Part shown: positions 25,327-36,259 of the stretch, piece by piece
How positions within the stretch are numbered: position 1 is the stretch's first letter
Layout of the letters: each line of letters opens with the position of its first letter
Source: a virus
Lineage: Duplodnaviria > Heunggongvirae > Uroviricota > Caudoviricetes
DNA length: 42,273 bases
Reading direction: 5' to 3' (one strand)
IMG/VR virus record: IMGVR_UViG_2908959467_000004
Notes under the pieces: generated by a model
What the model was told of the DNA's origin: nothing
The model's input: only the letters and a program-made list of their open reading frames with translations
Databases searched by the model: none
Translations under genes and position numbers: made by a program

Positions 25327-25668
25327 TTATCTTACCTTGATGCCTGATGCCGTCAGATGTTTACGACAGTCCTGAATACCTTCGTTATAACCCGCATCGT
25401 AGAAGCTATCCGGCTTTGCCTTCAGCGCAGGAAGCGTAACGCTGGTAGCTCTTCGTTCGGCCAGAACACCTGCCTGAAAGAGTGTCCACATCAACTGAAC
25501 TGCTGAATCACAATAAGTAACATCTTCACTGTACAATTCTCGTTCAATCCTGATGCCAAGTTGAGCCTTCATTGATGCGCCAATATTACCTTTGACCTGC
25601 AACGACAAGTCTGGATACCTCTGTTCCATGAAGCTTTCAAATCTGTTGCGAACGCTGATCAGAGCCAT
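25327..25668 (-). CDS. hypothetical protein co-transcribed with the Q-like gene
   Basis: 113 aa; SD AAGGGA 5 nt upstream of ATG; 31 nt downstream of the Q-like stop. Confidence 0.45.
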   Translation of the reverse strand: MALISVRNRFESFMEQRYPDLSLQVKGNIGASMKAQLGIRIERELYSEDVTYCDSAVQLMWTLFQAGVLAERRATSVTLPALKAKPDSFYDAGYNEGIQDCRKHLTASGIKVR

Positions 25669-25699
25669 CTGGTTCCCTTACGTGATTGATTGCTGGATA

Positions 25700-26122
25700 T
25701 TATGCCGCCGAGCAGCTCCTACGCAATGTCCTGATAGCCTGAGGCTTTGACTGAACCGACTGATCCATTTCGAGCACCACATCCAGCATGGCTAAGCAAC
25801 CGTCAATAAATCCCTCTGCCGCCTGAAGCCTCTTCAGAACGTGGGTGTGAGATACGCCGAGCTTCTCACCCATCGTCCGCACGGGCATGGCCTGGACGTA
25901 ATGCCACTCAAGGAGCGTGCACAGATACGGATCTTTTTTCTTCAGGCAGCTCATAGCGGAGTTGATGATAAGACCGTCATTGTCACTGCATTTCAGCCTT
26001 CCAGAGTGCGTCGCGGGTAGCAGATTCTTAAACCCAGCTGCAACAGGAGGAAAGTAGACGCTACCACCTTCACTCGCTGCCCAGCCACCCCAGCGCTCTA
26101 AAACCTGTTGAATATTACGCAT
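25700..26122 (-). CDS. late-gene antiterminator (Q-like)
   Basis: 140 aa; between replication genes and the lysis cassette, followed by a regulatory region with terminators; HTH-like segment MGEKLGVSHTHVLKRLQ. Confidence 0.5.
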   Translation of the reverse strand: MRNIQQVLERWGGWAASEGGSVYFPPVAAGFKNLLPATHSGRLKCSDNDGLIINSAMSCLKKKDPYLCTLLEWHYVQAMPVRTMGEKLGVSHTHVLKRLQAAEGFIDGCLAMLDVVLEMDQSVQSKPQAIRTLRRSCSAA

Positions 26123-26239
26123 AGCTCTGACCTCTACGTTTTGCTACGAAAAAATTTTCTGAGAACTACGTCTGTTTATCCGTGGGTGTGGATAACGCAG
26201 TTTCGATTCGCTTATTACACGCTGTTATGTGCAAAAAAT

Positions 26240-26440
26240 TCCTTGTTCGGCCTGTACCAGCCTGTACCCACCTGTACCAGCTCTTTTCAAACCTTTTCCC
26301 CAAGCGACTTATATATATATATGGGGTTCTTAGTAATTAGGTTGGTACAGTTGGTACAGTTGGTACTGGCCTTTAAATTCAATTAGTTAAATGTACCAAC
26401 CTCTATTTTGAGGCTGGTACAGGTTGGGACACCGCCTCAA
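26240..26440. repeat. putative replication origin: TGTACCA iterons in both orientations flanking an alternating AT tract
   Basis: CCTGTACC(A/C)(G/A) x3 at 26251-26280; (TA)n tract ~26308-26325; GTTGGTACA x3 at 26339-26367; TGTACCAAC at 26392-26400; CCTGTACCAGCC (minus) at 26417-26428 inside the primase 3' end. Confidence 0.6.
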
Positions 26441-28595
26441 AAATTCGAGTCATTTTTCCGTCAACACGACGTTGAACACGCTTATACCCGCAATTTTGCA
26501 AAACATTACTAATTCGCATTTCTTCGCGTTTTCCGATGCGGTCAGGATTTAGCCCAATCGCATCACGCAAAACATCACTTGCGCGTAAAAATTCGCAATT
26601 TCGCGGAAGTTCATTAGTCATCAGGTCGGGCGTGTCGAGCCATTTCTCTACCGTTTCAAGCCAAGCATCCTTGATGGTGTACTGTTCATGGACACTCGCT
26701 GCCAGTTGTTCAGCCTCACGGAACTGGATACCCCCCAGACGCTGAAACACCTCACGAGCCTCAGCCCAAAGTAAAAGGAGATCTCTTTTTATCGCTTTCA
26801 CGTCGACTTTCGACACTTCCACGGGGAGCCAGCGACGGTTACCAGTCTTGTCCGCAAGGAATTCGTCCTCATTGGTGGTACCAACGAACACCAGGCGACG
26901 AGGAAACTGGGTGGCGAACTCCCGGTATTTCGGGATCCAGTTTTCGTGAGTACGCGTCACAAACGCTTTGATTGACTCCAGCTCTTTGGTATTAAGTCCG
27001 CGCAGTTCACCAATCTCTGCCACCAGCCGACCACGCATTTTTCGAGCGAGATCATCGTCTTTTTCGGCAAAAGAGATTTCAGTAAAAAACGCAGGATCAG
27101 GGCTCAGTGCCTCCACTCCGGAAGACTTACCGCAGCCCTGCGGACCAACGAGGATCGGCACCATATCCGCTTTGATGCCTGGCTCCAGTACTCGCCCCGC
27201 CAACGCGGTCCACATGTACATAGACACCGCACGGGTATAAGGCGTGTCGGCGGTACCGAAGTGCGTATGGTAGAAACATTCGATGCGCGGCACGCCATCC
27301 CACTCCAGTCCGTTCAGCCAGGTGATCGCTGAATCGAATGGTTGTTCATCGGCTGCAAGTAACACCACATCGCGAATAAGTTCACGACCAACAGGTTTAA
27401 ATCCCCGCTTTTCCATCGTGATGCGCAGGCGCGCATAATCCGCATCGGTGAATGCCCGCCATTGTCCGGATCCTGCAGGGGCAAACATGATTTCGTCGCG
27501 GAACTGGTCAAAGCGAATATCGATGTCCACAAAATCAGGGCGTACTACTGCTTTGGCTGCGTTGCTGATGGTTGCCTCGATACGCCCCCATTTATCACGC
27601 TCGAAAGCAGGCAGCGGTAAAGGTTCCGCCACTTCGGTGCTGGTCAGATCTTCGAAATCGTCGTTGCGGATCCCGATGGCATTAAGGAAATCTCCGTCAT
27701 CACGATGCGCACAACTGGCATGCAGGCATTTAAAATGCCCCTGCTCAAAGCCCGCGGTTCCCGCAGGAAAATAAACTGTGCTTGTTGGATCGCCCCCGCT
27801 ACTGTGGCCGTCTTCAAACGGACAGCGGATATATCGTTCACCATTTGCGCCATCCAGCAGCGTCCAGCCATTGGCATCAAGATATTCAGCTGTATCATCC
27901 GTCGCGCCGGGCGTGAATGCTGATCGGTCGCGCATCTTCGTGTTGCCCGCTTCGGTGGTTACCGACACAGGGAGTTGTTCAGCCAGGCGCTGCCACAGCG
28001 TTTCAAGCTGCTCACCAGTAATAGCCGGAGGTTCATCCGGCAAACCGCCGTCCCATTCAATACGCGCGCCGCTGCTGTGCGTACCGCAGGCAACGAACTG
28101 CTGCCCGTTCGCCAGCAACTCGATAATGCCCATATCCCCCGCCAGGCGATGGATACGCTTACGGAAATCACCATCAACGGCCAGCAGATACAGACACTTA
28201 TTACTGTTTGCTCGCCAGCGTCGCGGCGGCAACTCCCCCAGAAGTTGCACAAGCGTTTTGCGAATATCTGCCTGAATGTCTTCATCTTCGCTATCGCAGT
28301 CCAGCGCCAGCCAGCCATGGCCTGTACGCACGCAGATGCCATAATCCGGTTCATTCGACCAGCGGGCAAAATCATGCTCAGTAACAACATGCCCAGTCCA
28401 TTGAGCAATACCGGTGACCTGGCGGTCCCGGTTATAGCGACTCGGCGTCTTACCCAACGCTTTCAGTTTACTATCAGGGGATATGGTCGCACTGGGGTTA
28501 CATACAACTGGGAGAAGATGATCAGTTCTCCCCAATACCAGGTCGAAATGAAACCACTCATCAGGCGTAGCTCCCCATGGTTTGCTATCGGACAT
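26403..28595 (-). CDS. replicative primase-helicase (P4 alpha/D5-like, with primase-polymerase-like N-terminus)
   Basis: 730 aa; Walker A LVGPQGCGKSS in the C-terminal half; Cys/His cluster CPFEDGHSSGG...HFKCLHASCAH; first large gene of the Cro-side operon. Confidence 0.8.
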   Translation of the reverse strand: MSDSKPWGATPDEWFHFDLVLGRTDHLLPVVCNPSATISPDSKLKALGKTPSRYNRDRQVTGIAQWTGHVVTEHDFARWSNEPDYGICVRTGHGWLALDCDSEDEDIQADIRKTLVQLLGELPPRRWRANSNKCLYLLAVDGDFRKRIHRLAGDMGIIELLANGQQFVACGTHSSGARIEWDGGLPDEPPAITGEQLETLWQRLAEQLPVSVTTEAGNTKMRDRSAFTPGATDDTAEYLDANGWTLLDGANGERYIRCPFEDGHSSGGDPTSTVYFPAGTAGFEQGHFKCLHASCAHRDDGDFLNAIGIRNDDFEDLTSTEVAEPLPLPAFERDKWGRIEATISNAAKAVVRPDFVDIDIRFDQFRDEIMFAPAGSGQWRAFTDADYARLRITMEKRGFKPVGRELIRDVVLLAADEQPFDSAITWLNGLEWDGVPRIECFYHTHFGTADTPYTRAVSMYMWTALAGRVLEPGIKADMVPILVGPQGCGKSSGVEALSPDPAFFTEISFAEKDDDLARKMRGRLVAEIGELRGLNTKELESIKAFVTRTHENWIPKYREFATQFPRRLVFVGTTNEDEFLADKTGNRRWLPVEVSKVDVKAIKRDLLLLWAEAREVFQRLGGIQFREAEQLAASVHEQYTIKDAWLETVEKWLDTPDLMTNELPRNCEFLRASDVLRDAIGLNPDRIGKREEMRISNVLQNCGYKRVQRRVDGKMTRIFEAVSQPVPASK

Positions 28596-28598
28596 GGG

Positions 28599-28811
28599 TT
28601 AAGCCTTTTTATCGTTTTGTGAGCCATACAACAGCCAATTAGGGTCGCAATCCAATGCTATAGACATTTCAAGAAGATAACGTGGCCGAGCAATAACACC
28701 ACTTTCAATTCTGTTTATTGCCTGCTGGCTCACTCCTGTGAGCTCAGCCAACGTAACTTGCGTCATTTTGAGTTCTTTACGTCGTTCTTTTACTCGGGTC
28801 GCTAAGGTCAT
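28599..28811 (-). CDS. Cro-like HTH repressor (XRE family)
   Basis: 70 aa from ATG at 28811 (SD GAGGTG); HTH MTQVTLAELTGVSQQAINRIESG; divergent from the CI-like gene and first in the lytic operon. Confidence 0.7.
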   Translation of the reverse strand: MTLATRVKERRKELKMTQVTLAELTGVSQQAINRIESGVIARPRYLLEMSIALDCDPNWLLYGSQNDKKA

Positions 28812-28838
28812 TGCTTTCACCTCATACAATTTTAGTGG

Positions 28839-28880: not shown

Positions 28881-28909
28881 TTGTTTTTAATGTGGGGATA
28901 CACATTAAT
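28881..28909 (+). promoter_or_regulatory. pRM-like promoter with operator palindrome
   Basis: -35 TTGTTT (28881-28886), 17-bp spacer, -10 ATTAAT (28904-28909); perfect palindrome TTAATGTG-N6-CACATTAA at 28887-28908; ATACAA-N6-TTGTTT at 28869-28886. Confidence 0.4.
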
Positions 28910-28931
28910 ACAACCCAGAAGGACTAATCCC

Positions 28932-29555
28932 ATGTCTCTCGCAGCCCGTTTTAAAGCACGTCGTTTGGAATTAGGAATGACTCAAGTGGAAGTAGCGAAT
29001 TCTGCAGGGGTTAGCCAACAATCCATAGAATCCATCGAAAGTGGACGAACCAGAAAGCCACGCAATCTTCTGGATCTGGCTAAGGCCTTGAAATGTAGCC
29101 CAGACTGGCTACTGAACGGTAAAAATATTATGCCTCTCGCGGAGATAAGTACCAGACGCATACCTATATTAAGTTACGTTCAGGCAGGAGAGCTTACAGA
29201 AGCAAGAGACATAACAGATCTGACAGGGGAATTTGAATATATTTTGGCAGACTCTGACATTCCAGAAACATGCTTCGCATTACGTATCGATGGCGACAGC
29301 ATGCAACCAGAGTTTAAAGAAGGAGACATTGTTATCATCGATCCTGATCTATGTCCTGCACCAGGGGAGTTTGTTGTCGCCAAAAACGACGGTCACGAAG
29401 CTACATTTAAAAAATACCGTCCATTAGGAATCGGCATCGACGACTTTGAATTAATCCCCCTAAATCCTGATTACCCTATTTTTCGTAGTGCAGATATGAA
29501 CTTACAGATCATAGGTGTAATGATCGAACACCGTATTTACCGCCGTAAACGTTAG
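28932..29555 (+). CDS. CI-like repressor (HTH plus LexA/S24 peptidase domain)
   Basis: 207 aa from ATG at 28932 (SD AAGGA); HTH MTQVEVANSAGVSQQSIESIESG; S24 motifs GDSMQP and FKKY (Ser/Lys dyad). Confidence 0.8.
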   Translation: MSLAARFKARRLELGMTQVEVANSAGVSQQSIESIESGRTRKPRNLLDLAKALKCSPDWLLNGKNIMPLAEISTRRIPILSYVQAGELTEARDITDLTGEFEYILADSDIPETCFALRIDGDSMQPEFKEGDIVIIDPDLCPAPGEFVVAKNDGHEATFKKYRPLGIGIDDFELIPLNPDYPIFRSADMNLQIIGVMIEHRIYRRKR

Positions 29556-31246: not shown

Positions 31247-32548
31247 ATGCCAGACGTTCACGCACAACTTTCTCCATCATCAGCGCATCGATGGATGCGC
31301 TGCCCAGGAAGTCTGGCGCTGGAGGCCACACAACCGGATAAAGAAACAACTTTTGCAATCGAGGGCACTGCAGCGCACGCGCTTGCTGAAAAAGTTCTAC
31401 GAAACAGGCAAAGCCACCCGGAACACTACGCCGGATGCAATGTTTCTATGTTTCTCGGCTCATACCCCCTTCGCGAAAATCCTGATGATACATCTGGCCC
31501 ACAGGTGGATGATGAAATGGTCGAAGCCGTCGGCCGGTATGTTGATACGGTCTGGACTCTTGCAAAGAATAATGAACTATTGGTTGAACAACGTGTTGAT
31601 TTCTCACATATAACGGGTGTGGAAGAATCTTTCGGAACTGCCGACGGCATAATCATCGCGGGTAACGAATTACAAATCCACGACCTGAAATATGGCAAAG
31701 GCGTCCGCATTGATGCAGAACAAAATGAGCAACTACAACTGTATGCTCTGGGTGCGCTCGAACAATTCAGCATGCTGTATGACTTTGAGACTGTAAGATT
31801 ATTTATTCACCAGCCAAGGCTCAACCACGTTTCAGAATGGTCGTTAACCGTGCAGGAACTTCAGTCTTTCGGTGAACGAGCACAGGAGGCCGCAACCAGT
31901 GCGATCCTTGTTCTCAATATTGCTGAATGCGAAAGCATTGAGACACTACCGCTGGAAAACTTCATACCTGGAGAAAAACAGTGCCGCTTCTGTAAAGCAA
32001 AAGCTATTTGCACTGCCCAGAAAATGCAGCATTTACAAACAGCGGCCAGCGACTTTGAAGATCTGACAAAGCCTGTCAGCGAAATAATCACCAATGCCAG
32101 CGCACGTGTACCTCTGTTAACCACTGAGCAGCTTGCGGAGATCTATAGCCAGGCCGACTTTATTGAATCCTGGCTAAAGGCAGTACGGGACCGGGTTCAC
32201 AATGAACTCAATGCCGGACATCCGGTACCGGGGTTTAAACTGGTAACAGGAAAACAAGGTAACCGGGCCTGGAGTGATGAAGAGGCAGCTCGCGCACTTC
32301 TGAAGGACCAGTTCAGGTACAAAACTGAAGAAGTATTCGACTTTAAACTTATTAGTCCCACAAAAGCCGAAAAACTTATCAAAAAGGCCAGTCCGCGCCG
32401 TTGGTCAAAAGTCGAGGCACTGATAACACGAGCTGATGGTAAACCCACCGTCGTTCCCGAGTCAGACCCACGCCCCGCACTCGATATCAACCCTGTAAAT
32501 GATTTCGACGACGTATCCGACGATACGCTAACCGCAGACCTCATCTGA
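31247..32548 (+). CDS. PD-(D/E)XK nuclease, DUF2800/Cas4-like
   Basis: 433 aa; N-terminal [14 protein letters not shown] motif; downstream Cys cluster [10 protein letters not shown]. Confidence 0.7.
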
Positions 32549-32563
32549 TTTAAGGAAATACCC

Positions 32564-33112
32564 ATGAAACTGAAGTTGAACAATGTTCGTCTGGCCTTCC
32601 CGTCTCTGTTTGAAGCTAAAACTGTAAACGGCGAAGGCGATCCGCGTTTCTCCGCAGTATTTTTAATGTCACCCAAACACCCACAACTGGAAGAAATCCG
32701 TAAAGCTATGAAGCAGGTAGCGAAGGAAAAATGGGGGGAGAAGTGGGAGTCCATTTATAACCAGCTGGAGAAAAAACTCAATCTGTGCCTGCATGATGGT
32801 GATGAAAAAGCAGAGTATGAAGGCTTTCCCGGCAATTTCTTCCTGAACGCTGCTAACAAAGCGCGCCCAGCTGTTCTTGATCGCGATCGTTCGCCACTAA
32901 TTCAGGCTGATGGACGTCCCTATGCAGGGTGCTATGTAAACGCCGTTATCGATATCTGGGCACAGGACAATAATTTCGGTAAACGCATTAATGCCTCACT
33001 CGGCGGAGTCCAGTTCCTGCGAGACGGCGATGCATTCGCTGGCGGCGGAGTGGCAAGCGCTGACGATTTCGACGATATCAGCGAAGGTGCTGATGCTGAA
33101 GCACTAATTTAA
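32564..33112 (+). CDS. ssDNA-binding-like protein, DUF2815 family
   Basis: 182 aa; N-terminus MKLKLNNVRLAFPSLFEAK; paired with the DUF2800-like nuclease and DNA polymerase. Confidence 0.6.
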   Translation: MKLKLNNVRLAFPSLFEAKTVNGEGDPRFSAVFLMSPKHPQLEEIRKAMKQVAKEKWGEKWESIYNQLEKKLNLCLHDGDEKAEYEGFPGNFFLNAANKARPAVLDRDRSPLIQADGRPYAGCYVNAVIDIWAQDNNFGKRINASLGGVQFLRDGDAFAGGGVASADDFDDISEGADAEALI

Positions 33113-33133
33113 AAATATTCATCCCCCAGCTAC

Positions 33134-33802
33134 GTGCTGGGGGATCTCATGAGGGAAAGAATAATGTCACAGCCCGTATTAACTAATTACCTTAAAACTC
33201 AAATCATCAATAACGCACTTGAGAAAGCGGGTATCCCCAAACGTAAATCAGCACTACGAGCTGCTCGTGTTGAATGGGCCGAACGTGTTCGGCTTGCAGC
33301 TATCGGGGGCGTAGAGAAAGAAGCTGAAATATTAAAAAATATAAAAAAAATAGAAACACTGGTATCAAAATTCCCCGAAGCATTAAAAACCGCCAATAAC
33401 ATTATCAGGGAAGAGTGTTACATGTGTCTGAATCTGGCAGGTTCTCGGGTTACCGTCTATTTCAACGGTAACTACCGAGGATATGAATCAGGGTCACCAG
33501 ACCATATTCACAAAATCGCGCCGGGGGAATTTACCCTTCTGGCAAATGACCCTCTAGTTACAGAGTTTTACGGGTTTGATACACTTTATGAGCAGATACA
33601 GAGCGATGAGTCAGACATTCGACAGAATGTCAGCGCTGCACTCAGTAAAGTGCGCACAGTTAAGCGCCTGCTGGAAGAGTGGCCTGAAGCTAAAGAACTT
33701 CTGCCAGCCGATGCACCATCTGCTCCGCTTCCGCCAGCTATACGACGCGAAACTCTCAACGAAATGATCGGCCTCCCTTCTGACGAAGGGGTAGATGCTT
33801 AA
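33134..33802 (+). CDS. hypothetical protein
   Basis: 222-aa ORF; internal ATG at 33164 is an alternative start. Confidence 0.4.
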   Translation: MLGDLMRERIMSQPVLTNYLKTQIINNALEKAGIPKRKSALRAARVEWAERVRLAAIGGVEKEAEILKNIKKIETLVSKFPEALKTANNIIREECYMCLNLAGSRVTVYFNGNYRGYESGSPDHIHKIAPGEFTLLANDPLVTEFYGFDTLYEQIQSDESDIRQNVSAALSKVRTVKRLLEEWPEAKELLPADAPSAPLPPAIRRETLNEMIGLPSDEGVDA

Positions 33803-33869
33803 TATTTCTTATAACAAAGGCTGGCTTAAGAAAATAGTTATCCAAACCAGCCTACCGCAATACTAAAAA

Positions 33870-34139
33870 TTAAAATTCATTGAATTTAAAAAGACATTTC
33901 CCTATTGGATTGCCATAGTCTCTACATACCGAAATGCTGTCCCATACAGGCTGAGCCAAACACCCAAGAAAGAACCCAATAAGCGCAAAAATTATAATTT
34001 TGGGAAGAACACGATCCTTAGGACCTTCTTCACGTTCGAGCCATGCGCCACCAGCCCGAACTATTCTCCCTAAAATATAAAGAATGGGGAAAGCAATAAT
34101 ACCTATCAATGAAAGTATTCCGATACCAAAGCTAAACAC
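33870..34139 (-). CDS. small integral membrane protein, oppositely oriented moron
   Basis: 89 aa; hydrophobic helices ILSLIGIIAFPILYIL and IIIFALIGFFLGCLA; AT-rich; antisense to the replication operon. Confidence 0.5.
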   Translation of the reverse strand: MFSFGIGILSLIGIIAFPILYILGRIVRAGGAWLEREEGPKDRVLPKIIIFALIGFFLGCLAQPVWDSISVCRDYGNPIGKCLFKFNEF

Positions 34140-34195
34140 CGCCGTCTCCTTGTTTATTTACACCTACATAACCATATATCACACAAGGTTATTTT

Positions 34196-36259
34196 ATGTC
34201 CAATATACTATGGGGTGACCTAGAAACCTATTGCGAAATCCCTATTACGAACGGTACCCATGCGTATGCCGAAGGCGTTGAAGTGATGCTGTTCGCATGG
34301 GCTATCAACGACGAGCCCGTAAACGTGTGGGATATCACTGCCGGTGGTGGTATTCCACACGGCTTATACGAAGCAATCGCAGCCCCTGAAACCCTGCTTT
34401 ATTTTCATAACTCTCACTTCGACCGCACCGTCCTGCGTTATGCAATGCCGCGCCTGGCACCGCCAGTCGAACGTTGGCGCGACACAATGGTGCAGGCGCT
34501 GGCGCACGGTCTCCCGGGGTCTCTGGGGGAACTCTGCGAAGTACTAGGCGTCCCGCAAGACAAAGCGAAGGACAAAGAAGGTAAAGCGCTGATCCAGCTG
34601 TTCTGTAAGCCACGCCCGAAAAACAGCAAACTGCGCCGGGCCACCAGCAAAACCCACCCGGAAGAATGGCGGCGCTTTGTTGCTTACGCCGGACTGGATA
34701 TCGAGGCAATGCGCGAAGTCTATAAACGTCTGCCGAAGTGGAATTATCAGGGGACAGAACTGGCGCTCTGGCATCGTGATCAGCAGATCAACGACCGGGG
34801 CGTCTGCATGGACATTCAACTCGCGCGCGCTGCGATCGAAGCGGTAGACCAGGAGCAAAAGCGCCTGGCAAAGCGTACACAGGAAATGACTGATGGCGAA
34901 GTGCAGGCAGCAACACAACGGGACGCGTTGATTAAGCACATCGTTGAATCCTACGGTGTGGAGCTACCAGACATGCAACGCAGTACTCTGGAACGTCGTA
35001 TAGCCGACCCCGATTTACCATCTGCCGTGAAAGAACTGCTGGCTATCCGCCTGCAGGCCAGTACTACCAGCACCAGTAAATACAAGGCACTGATGAAAGG
35101 CGTAAGCCACGACGGGCGCTTACGCGGTACGCTACAGTTCTGCGGGGCGTCACGTACCGGTCGTTGGGCCGGACGGCTATTCCAGCCCCAGAACCTTCCC
35201 CGCCCTTCACTAAAACAGGAACAAATAGACGAAGGCATCGAAGCACTGAAAGCCGGATGTGCAGACCTGCTGTTTGACAATATCATGGAACTAACCAGTT
35301 CAGCGTTACGTGGCTGCATTATCGCGCCAACAGGCAAAAAACTGGTGGTAAGTGACTTGTCGAACATTGAAGGCCGTATGCTGGCATGGCTGGCGGGAGA
35401 AGAATGGAAACTGAATGCATTCAGAGAGTACGACGCCGGAACGGGTCCGGACTTATATAAACTGGCGTATGCAAAAGCTTTCGATATTGCACCAGATGAT
35501 GTTGATAAACACATGCGTCAGATCGGTAAAGTCATGGAACTCGGTCTGGGTTATGGCGGTGGTGTATCGGCTTTCATCACTTTTGCTCTGGTTTACGGTC
35601 TCGATCTCGACGAGCTGGCGAACGCCGCACTGCCAAACATTCCCCGCGATGTTATCCGCGAGGCGAAAAGCTGGTACAACGAATCGGTTAAACGTAAGTC
35701 GACCTTTGGCCTGTCCGAGCGTGTATTCATCGCATGTGACTCGCTCAAGCGCCTGTGGCGCAGGGCGCACCCGGCGACCTGCGATTTCTGGTACGAACTG
35801 GAGCGCACCGTCCGCACTGCAATCGCCACACCGCAAAAAACATTGTATTGCGGTTATCTTAAAATCCGCCGCGATGGCGCGTGGCTGCGCATACAGCTAC
35901 CATCCGGACGCGCTGTATGCTACCCCTCTCCGGTTATCGAAAAAGGGAATATCACCTATATGGGTGTTAACTCTTATTCGCGTAAATGGCAACGACTCAA
36001 AACCTACGGCGGAAAGCTGGTAGAGAACGTCACCCAGGCGGCCGCCCGCGACGTTCTGGCCGGAAACATGCCGCTTATCGAAGATGCCGGTTACAGCATT
36101 GTGCTGACGGTACACGACGAGGTGATCACCGAAGCACCTGACACAGAAGATTTCAACGATAAAGAGCTTTCCGCGCTTCTCTCCAATAACCCCGAATGGG
36201 CGCCCGATATCCCACTGAACGCTGGCGGTTTTGAGGCGTACCACTACCGTAAGGATTAA
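34196..36259 (+). CDS. DNA polymerase, family A (PolA-like)
   Basis: 687 aa; motif B-like [16 protein letters not shown] and motif C-like VHDEV; N-terminal exonuclease-like region. Confidence 0.85.

Follow-up and report, generated by a model that had tools for sequence, protein, structure and literature searches.

A probable SaPI/PICI-type replication origin in a temperate Escherichia coli myovirus, predicted from iterons that covary with the tail of the presumed initiator

Between the gene for a primase-helicase and the gene for the late antiterminator Q, the DNA of a temperate phage holds a 280-bp gap in which a short motif recurs in both orientations around an AT-rich tract, and we questioned whether this array is where replication of the phage begins or whether it serves regulation, packaging, or another purpose. 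The stretch analyzed (IMG/VR record IMGVR_UViG_2908959467_000004, 42,273 bases, hereafter the window) is a prophage of E. coli, namely a complete temperate phage of the myovirus kind. The original prediction was that iterons and an unwinding element beside an initiator gene make up an origin. That reading gains support, at the level of sequence comparison, from homology of the primase-helicase to the Rep protein of SaPI1, from conservation of the layout among relatives, and from covariation between the repeats and a predicted hairpin of the protein. On these grounds, positions 26253-26431 are probably the replication origin of the phage, and of the type described for SaPIs and phage-inducible chromosomal islands (PICIs).

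The array consists of nine repeats of 9-10 bp (26253-26431, consensus TGTACCAACC). It begins within the final nine codons of the 730-aa primase-helicase gene (26403-28595, - strand) and ends about 130 bp ahead of gene Q, the next gene downstream (25700-26122, - strand, 140 aa; Pfam Phage_antitermQ, E 8e-42). Read on the primase-helicase strand, the order is a pair with copies 10 bp apart, an inverted single copy, a triplet with copies 9 bp apart, an AT-rich spacer of 57 bp, and an opposed triplet with copies about 10 bp apart; six iterons lie on the gene side of the spacer and three on the far side. Pair A (26412-26431, - strand), which falls within the last nine codons, is made up of TGTCCCAACC (26422-26431) and TGTACCAGCC (26412-26421). 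Iteron B is a single TGTACCAACC (26392-26401, + strand), inverted with respect to pair A and found at the same relative position in relatives. Triplet C (26340-26367, - strand) reads AGTACCAACT (26358-26367), TGTACCAACT (26349-26358), and TGTACCAACC (26340-26349), and both the triplet and its 9-bp period are kept in relatives. Triplet D (26253-26282, + strand), opposed to C, with a period of 10 and likewise kept in relatives, reads TGTACCAGCC, TGTACCCACC, and TGTACCAGCT, starting at 26253, 26263, and 26273.

Repeat finders bore out the copy number and spacing, with nine copies, periods of 9 and 10, and clustering far beyond chance. Tandem Repeats Finder reported one array at 26250-26281 (period 10, 3.2 copies, unit GCCTGTACCA) and another at 26341-26366 (period 9, 2.9 copies, unit GTTGGTACA), and the two were found to be inverted copies of each other and also copies of the repeats at 26392 and 26412-26431. 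The window has 26 exact copies of TGTACC (mean of 13.5 and largest count of 23 in shuffled sequences). Seven of the 26 lie within 26253-26421; at the density of the remaining 19 copies, those 169 bp should hold about 0.08 (Poisson probability of at least seven, ~3e-12). With the 10-mer TGTACCAACC as query, 7 of 10 sites in the window fell within 26253-26431 when one mismatch was allowed, and 9 of 33 when two were allowed. The sequence at 26240-26440 matches the original description of repeats in both orientations around a (TA)n tract, and these repeats are real. Finer details of that description required adjustment. Its minimum of eight copies is reached when one mismatch to the core is tolerated (nine copies) but not with exact TGTACC (seven copies). 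The three tandem copies claimed for the GTTGGTACA array do form a triplet, of which the third copy instead reads GTTGGTACT. Where one copy had been placed inside the 3' end of the primase gene, two lie within the open reading frame, the stop codon of which is at 26403-26405.

The spacer (26283-26339, 57 bp, 68% A+T) is where the strands presumably open first. It contains a (TA)6T tract at 26310-26322, with CCCCA/TGGGG flanks and a GGGGAAAAGGTT box. Compositional skew, tried as a means of locating the origin, showed just a local drop in G+C (0.33-0.38 in the spacer region) and cannot place an origin here. A hairpin or cruciform in the spacer was also rejected, as the single-strand fold was no better than that of shuffled sequences (z = -0.5). 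This result and the shortness of the spacer count against the origin reading. In most relatives the spacer is about 59 bp long with 64%-76% A+T, and in Enterobacterales its sequence, CCCCA(TA)nAGTCG...GGGAAAGGTT, is kept across iteron types, which suggests a role independent of iteron specificity.

The element that carries the array is widespread. Of 5,426 complete E. coli genomes, 104 share the intergenic region, and it was chromosomal every time. In strain 21KM1392 (locus L001), the element adjoins yfhL and shoB, and its order is integrase, a leftward replication operon, cI, Cro, primase-helicase, Q, lysis genes, terminase, and a contractile-tail virion module. Both the window and the 21KM1392 locus encode terminase, portal, capsid, sheath, tube, baseplate, lysis genes, Q, cI/Cro, and integrase. 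The window further encodes a PD-(D/E)XK nuclease (DUF2800), an Enc34-type single-strand binding protein, and a family-A DNA polymerase (all three within 31247-36259), together with two methyltransferases and an SNF2 helicase. Its virion genes are 97% identical to those of Escherichia phage vB_EcoM-611R5 and 82% identical to those of Salmonella phage SEN34. That the element might itself be a PICI or SaPI satellite is ruled out by the full set of virion, lysis, and integrase genes; the window is a complete prophage carrying a PICI-type replicon.

We assessed how the presumed initiator relates to known replication proteins. The primase-helicase combines an N-terminal AEP prim-pol, a VapE/Rep-type helicase, and a predicted C-terminal DNA-binding domain. 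Pfam places a VapE-like domain at residues 427-639 (E 2e-60), and PHROGs returned both DNA helicase and DNA primase families, the primase families matching the N-terminal third. A phmmer search against the PDB matched SaPI1 Rep (7pds) over residues 393-657 (E 8e-34), and Foldseek aligned the structure model to the same entry (E 7e-17, about 458 alignment columns against the 451-residue chain). The C-terminal ~450 residues are homologous to SaPI1 Rep, a self-loading initiator-helicase, at an identity of just ~20%-22%. The N-terminal part of the model resembles, by Foldseek, the prim-pol domains of pRN1 ORF904 and phage NrS-1, and Pfam Prim-Pol (PF09250) is annotated in homologues. No Rep_3/RepA-type initiator is present by Pfam.

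This homology invites a comparison of the array with the origins of SaPIs, the Reps of which are self-loading initiator-helicases whose C-terminal winged helix binds 6-12 iterons directly 3' of rep (PMC9371898). At these origins, iteron sets on either side of an AT-rich center point in opposite directions (PMC9371898). In replicons of this SaPI/PICI type, Rep and ori replicate autonomously, and Rep binds and melts the origin without ATP. The window resembles the SaPI system (PDB 7pds, 7ola; PMC9371898) in its homologous initiator-helicase, with a primase fusion as in SaPI5 PriRep; in an origin that begins at the 3' end of the gene, the stop codon lying inside the span of the array; in its number of iterons, nine being within the range of 6-12, with at least two per side, opposed, around an AT-rich center; and in its C-terminal domain, which is predicted here to be a winged helix. 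It differs in its host element, a complete temperate E. coli myovirus instead of a satellite; in a primase domain of the AEP prim-pol kind; in the length of its iterons (9-10 bp against 5-6 bp) and their fixed layout (2 + 1 + 3 | 3); and in the translation of two of them as the tail of the protein. Gram-negative PICIs share the SaPI origin layout, and a rep-ori fragment of EcCICFT073 drove replication of a plasmid (PMC6092414). PICIs of the EcCICFT073 type come from the same host group and are alike in layout, with pri-rep followed by ori and two iteron sets flanking an AT-rich region (PMC6092414). Gram-negative PICIs are, however, satellites without virion genes, whereas the element here is a phage with its own polymerase.

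The region 3' of the gene was read in four diverged E. coli prophages and in Yersinia phage YeP4, and then in 109 further loci (29 from other genomes and 80 viral contigs). Almost all relatives carry the same layout after the gene (2 + 1 + 3 | AT | 3; more than 100 loci, from Enterobacterales to Burkholderiales), including Xenorhabdus, Providencia, Gilliamella, Burkholderiales, and Cellvibrionaceae. The absence of repeats from related phages with the same initiator had been named as an outcome that would count against an origin, and the opposite was found. The repeats themselves vary, with at least 10 different sequences among the relatives. The core of the window, TGTACCAAC, also occurs in Photorhabdus, Xenorhabdus, Providencia, and Symbiopectobacterium, and core TAGACAACC occurs in YeP4 and others. 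Further cores are TGTCCCAAC, TGGAACCAC, TGTTACCAC, TGTAACCAC, TGTA(T/A)CCAC, TGTAGCCAC, TAGACCACC, and TGTAACAAC, and unrelated cores occur in Gilliamella, Burkholderiales, and Cellvibrionaceae. Relatives also carry GGAACCAC-type and GTTACCAC-type fragments, which would be non-cognate to the window type. Between relatives, the array as a whole shifts by 24-26 nt relative to the stop codon. Short-tail proteins stop just before the first iteron pair, leaving it right after the stop codon, and long-tail proteins (26406-26431 in the window; loci L003, L004, and L064) read through the first two iterons, so their last 8-10 residues are translated iterons (PVPASK in the window, EPLEPRGTT elsewhere).

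The position of the array, between the early genes and Q, raises the alternative that the primase-helicase binds it mainly for regulation (autoregulation of the early operon or a block of read-through into Q), with the origin elsewhere. Neither a sigma-70-like promoter nor a terminator was found on the - strand between 25500 and 26700, and because none separates the primase-helicase gene from Q, Q seems to be transcribed straight through the array, which favors regulation. The lone terminator-like match in the gap was rejected as a terminator, being on the + strand and inside triplet C. The interval from Cro to Q showed no N-like gene, and there was no Rfam match in 25600-26700 at E up to 1. 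Q usually follows the array in Enterobacterales relatives, which also fits regulation. Nevertheless, the array stays with the primase-helicase where Q is absent (YeP4 and loci from Orbaceae, Burkholderiales, and Cellvibrionaceae), its opposed triplets around an AT-rich center form the layout of proven SaPI and PICI origins, and the window holds no second repeat cluster that could act as the origin instead. We therefore regard a mainly regulatory array as distinctly unlikely, while a regulatory role on top of origin function is possible.

If the array is the binding site of the primase-helicase, its changes of sequence might be matched by changes in the protein. The variant primase-helicases of E. 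coli share 96%-99% identity overall, and 100% in most blocks of 30 residues; they are ~100% identical up to residue 706 and diverge after it. Repeat type tracks the five residues that follow G713-K714 (residues 715-719). Hairpins and cores were compared in a register-aware manner; a tolerance of one mismatch would merge iteron types that differ by a single base. In this comparison, MTRIF, MVRIF, and VTRIF go with core TGTACCAAC; KMRIF with TGTCCCAAC; KCKVW and KSKVW with TGGAACCAC; LMKVW and SMKVW with TGTTACCAC; VQRVW and VCKVW with TGTAACCAC; MTKAW with TGTAGCCAC; QQRVF and QQRIF with TAGACAACC; QIRVW with TAGACCACC; and SQRVY with TGTAACAAC. All 11 distinct hairpins that end in W pair with C at the base 5' of ACC, and the 12 hairpin-core combinations in which the hairpin ends in F or Y pair with A at that base; the sole two exceptions to this rule are distant outgroups. 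Near-minimal pairs show the swap (QQRVF and QIRVW, SQRVY and VQRVW, MTRIF and MTKAW).

This association does not follow the rest of the protein. Different repeat types are found on nearly identical protein bodies, and the repeat type of the window is also found on bodies just 72%-80% identical to it (L010, L011, L013, L017, and L022). In the natural chimeras L036-L040, the first hairpin strand is that of the GGAACC type (AQRRIGG) and is followed by KMTRIF; their repeats are TGTACC, which places the determinant after G713-K714. In the window, residues 715-719 are MTRIF, encoded at 26439-26453. As this lies outside the iterons, overlap between iterons and coding sequence does not account for the covariation. 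The hairpin codons are nevertheless only ~10-60 bp from the iterons, so the two would be expected to be inherited together even without a functional link.

Two copies in the window bear cores of other specificity types. The copy at 26422-26431 (TGTCCCAACC) has the core cognate to the KMRIF type, and the copy at 26263-26272 (TGTACCCACC) has C at the position that pairs with W-type hairpins. Two cores are also mixed in one array at loci L073 and L007.

The same comparisons bear on whether the repeats could be operators for cI, Cro, Q, or DnaA, that is, sites for another phage protein or a host protein. The Cro-like gene (28599-28829, - strand; Pfam) lies upstream of the primase-helicase gene and the divergent cI/LexA-like repressor gene (28881-29555, + strand; Pfam) beyond it, both 2.2 kb away, and the array has a perfect DnaA box at a distance of 60 bp. 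Repeat type is, however, unlinked to the types of cI, Cro, and Q. Between the window and L003, Q is 99% identical and the repeats differ; L003 and L004 have cI proteins that are 21% identical and repeats that are alike; and the window and L001 have Q proteins that are 44% identical and, again, like repeats. The DnaA box (TTATCCACA, 26187-26195, - strand) is the sole perfect one of the window. It is unrelated in sequence to the repeats and sits in the Q leader, inside an imperfect palindrome (TTATCCGTGGGTGTGGATAA, 26177-26197). Because a perfect box is present in 25 of 109 related loci only, and travels with the Q leader rather than with the iteron cassette, it probably does not belong to the conserved origin module. 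It is extremely improbable that the repeats are operators for any of these proteins. An iteron plasmid type of origin, with a RepA-type initiator and DnaA boxes, was likewise rejected, given the lack of such an initiator and the scarcity of the box among relatives.

Structure prediction offers a candidate for the part of the primase-helicase that would contact the iterons. AlphaFold models residues 672-721 (26433-26582, - strand) as helices at 672-680 and 689-701, the latter conserved (REEMRISNVLQNC), followed by a beta-hairpin (704-711/714-721). A helix-turn-helix followed by a beta-hairpin is the pattern of a winged helix, which we predict for this region. Confidence is low for the full-length model (pLDDT 62) and higher for a model of the domain alone (pLDDT 73, with 80-91 over the last 60 ordered residues); the two agree on the helices and the hairpin. 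A Foldseek search with the C-terminal domain alone gave no significant match (best E 0.04). Among its top matches, the small proteins are winged helices (PadR, MarR, Stf76, and Scc1), a weak hint of the fold. Helix 689-701 is conserved across iteron types, as is the ACC(T) end of the iterons, and the hairpin and the opposite iteron end vary together; because of this correspondence, we infer that the helix reads the constant half of the iteron and the hairpin the variable half.

Binding, melting, and self-loading are likewise inferred, and we propose the following course for an origin of the SaPI/PICI type. The 730-aa primase-helicase would bind the nine iterons through its C-terminal winged helix, with helix 689-701 on the conserved ACC(T) half and hairpin residues 715-719 on the variable half. 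Hexamers would assemble on the opposed triplets that flank the 57-bp AT-rich spacer, open it at (TA)6T, and load themselves as helicases with no separate loader. Primers would be made by the N-terminal prim-pol domain, and synthesis could then be performed by the family-A polymerase, the Enc34-type single-strand binding protein, and the nuclease of the phage.

Phage lambda provides a useful contrast. Its four iterons all point in one direction inside the O gene, and ori-lambda has an AT-rich region beside the iterons and lies in the path of rightward early transcription. The O protein has no helicase or primase activity and recruits host DnaB via the P protein. Among lambdoid phages, iteron sequence covaries with a small part of the initiator, giving replication specificity types. 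The window is similar in the covariation of iterons and initiator between related phages, in the AT-rich DNA beside the iterons, and in an origin in the path of early transcription. It differs in that the O protein is unrelated to the initiator here. A lambda-type O/P origin was rejected, as the presumed initiator is a prim-pol/VapE protein and only two of the nine iterons touch the coding region.

The alpha protein of satellite phage P4 holds primase, helicase, and a C-terminal origin-binding domain in one polypeptide and recognizes short repeats. The repeats to which it binds form two separated clusters away from its gene, one at ori and the other at crr. By analogy with the binding of alpha to both of these sites, the repeats of the window could be an auxiliary cis element that shares the sites of the initiator (similar to crr, or for packaging or partition), with the true origin elsewhere, and the gene for the small terminase is ~3 kb away. 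Yet a search with up to two mismatches found no second cluster of TGTACCAACC-type repeats in the 42-kb window, changes in the repeats track the tail of the primase-helicase and no packaging gene, and no gene for a partition protein was seen among the genes examined. We consider an auxiliary element of this kind very improbable. The P4 ori/crr system itself was also rejected, the single cluster in 42 kb adjoining the gene. The likeness to P4 (mentioned in PMC6092414) lies in the union of primase, helicase, and C-terminal origin-binding domain (the last predicted here) in one protein; the phmmer search returned no sequence match to a P4 alpha structure.

Phages with related virion genes have other replication genes at this place. 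Phage vB_EcoM-611R5 shares the virion genes and Q and has a different 753-aa protein in the same position, with prim-pol and DUF5906 helicase domains; downstream of its gene, GGTGACGG repeats of both orientations surround AT-rich DNA (L116 4590-4860). SEN34 carries a lambda O gene instead (PMC5261728). From these replacements, the initiator and the origin appear to be swapped together as a cassette. A literature search found no published description of the origin in SEN34-like or YeP4 phages. Small non-mobilizable plasmids of Serratia, Yersinia, and Klebsiella (12.9-15 kb) encode a VapE homologue of 430 aa that lacks a primase domain, and the VapE gene is followed by TGTTCCACCC-type repeats, ~100 bp of AT-rich DNA, and inverted copies (L117 3020-3320; L118 6070-6220). 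It is possible that these plasmids hold a plasmid version of the same replicon; other replication genes may sit among their unnamed proteins.

These comparisons would assign an origin and an initiator, as predicted from sequence, to a prophage group that is widespread in enterobacteria (including the E. coli genomes counted above). A layout that was earlier called unique to PICIs is also present in a complete phage and possibly in small plasmids, and its occurrence beyond PICIs bears on the source of the replicons of those islands. At least 10 natural origin specificities may exist on nearly identical proteins, about five hairpin residues apart. Such a set could be of use for learning how a winged helix reads DNA, for typing the cross-activation of replication between prophages, and perhaps for building replicons that do not interfere with one another. 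A rather unlikely extension of the SaPI/PICI-type origin is that it also times the late genes and, separately, that the hairpin/iteron pairs form a mutually exclusive set of initiators and origins. In that case, initiator bound at the origin would hold back transcription into Q until replication fires, coupling late gene expression to replication, and conflict among co-resident prophages or satellites could have driven the divergence of hairpins and iterons.

Variation was also seen elsewhere in the replication genes. The window has, between the genes for the single-strand binding protein and the polymerase, a gene for an Nmad5 (nucleotide modification associated) protein (33134-33802), and the same position in strain 21KM1392 is occupied by a SIR2-family gene (L001 27133-28614), indicating a variable slot within the replication operon.
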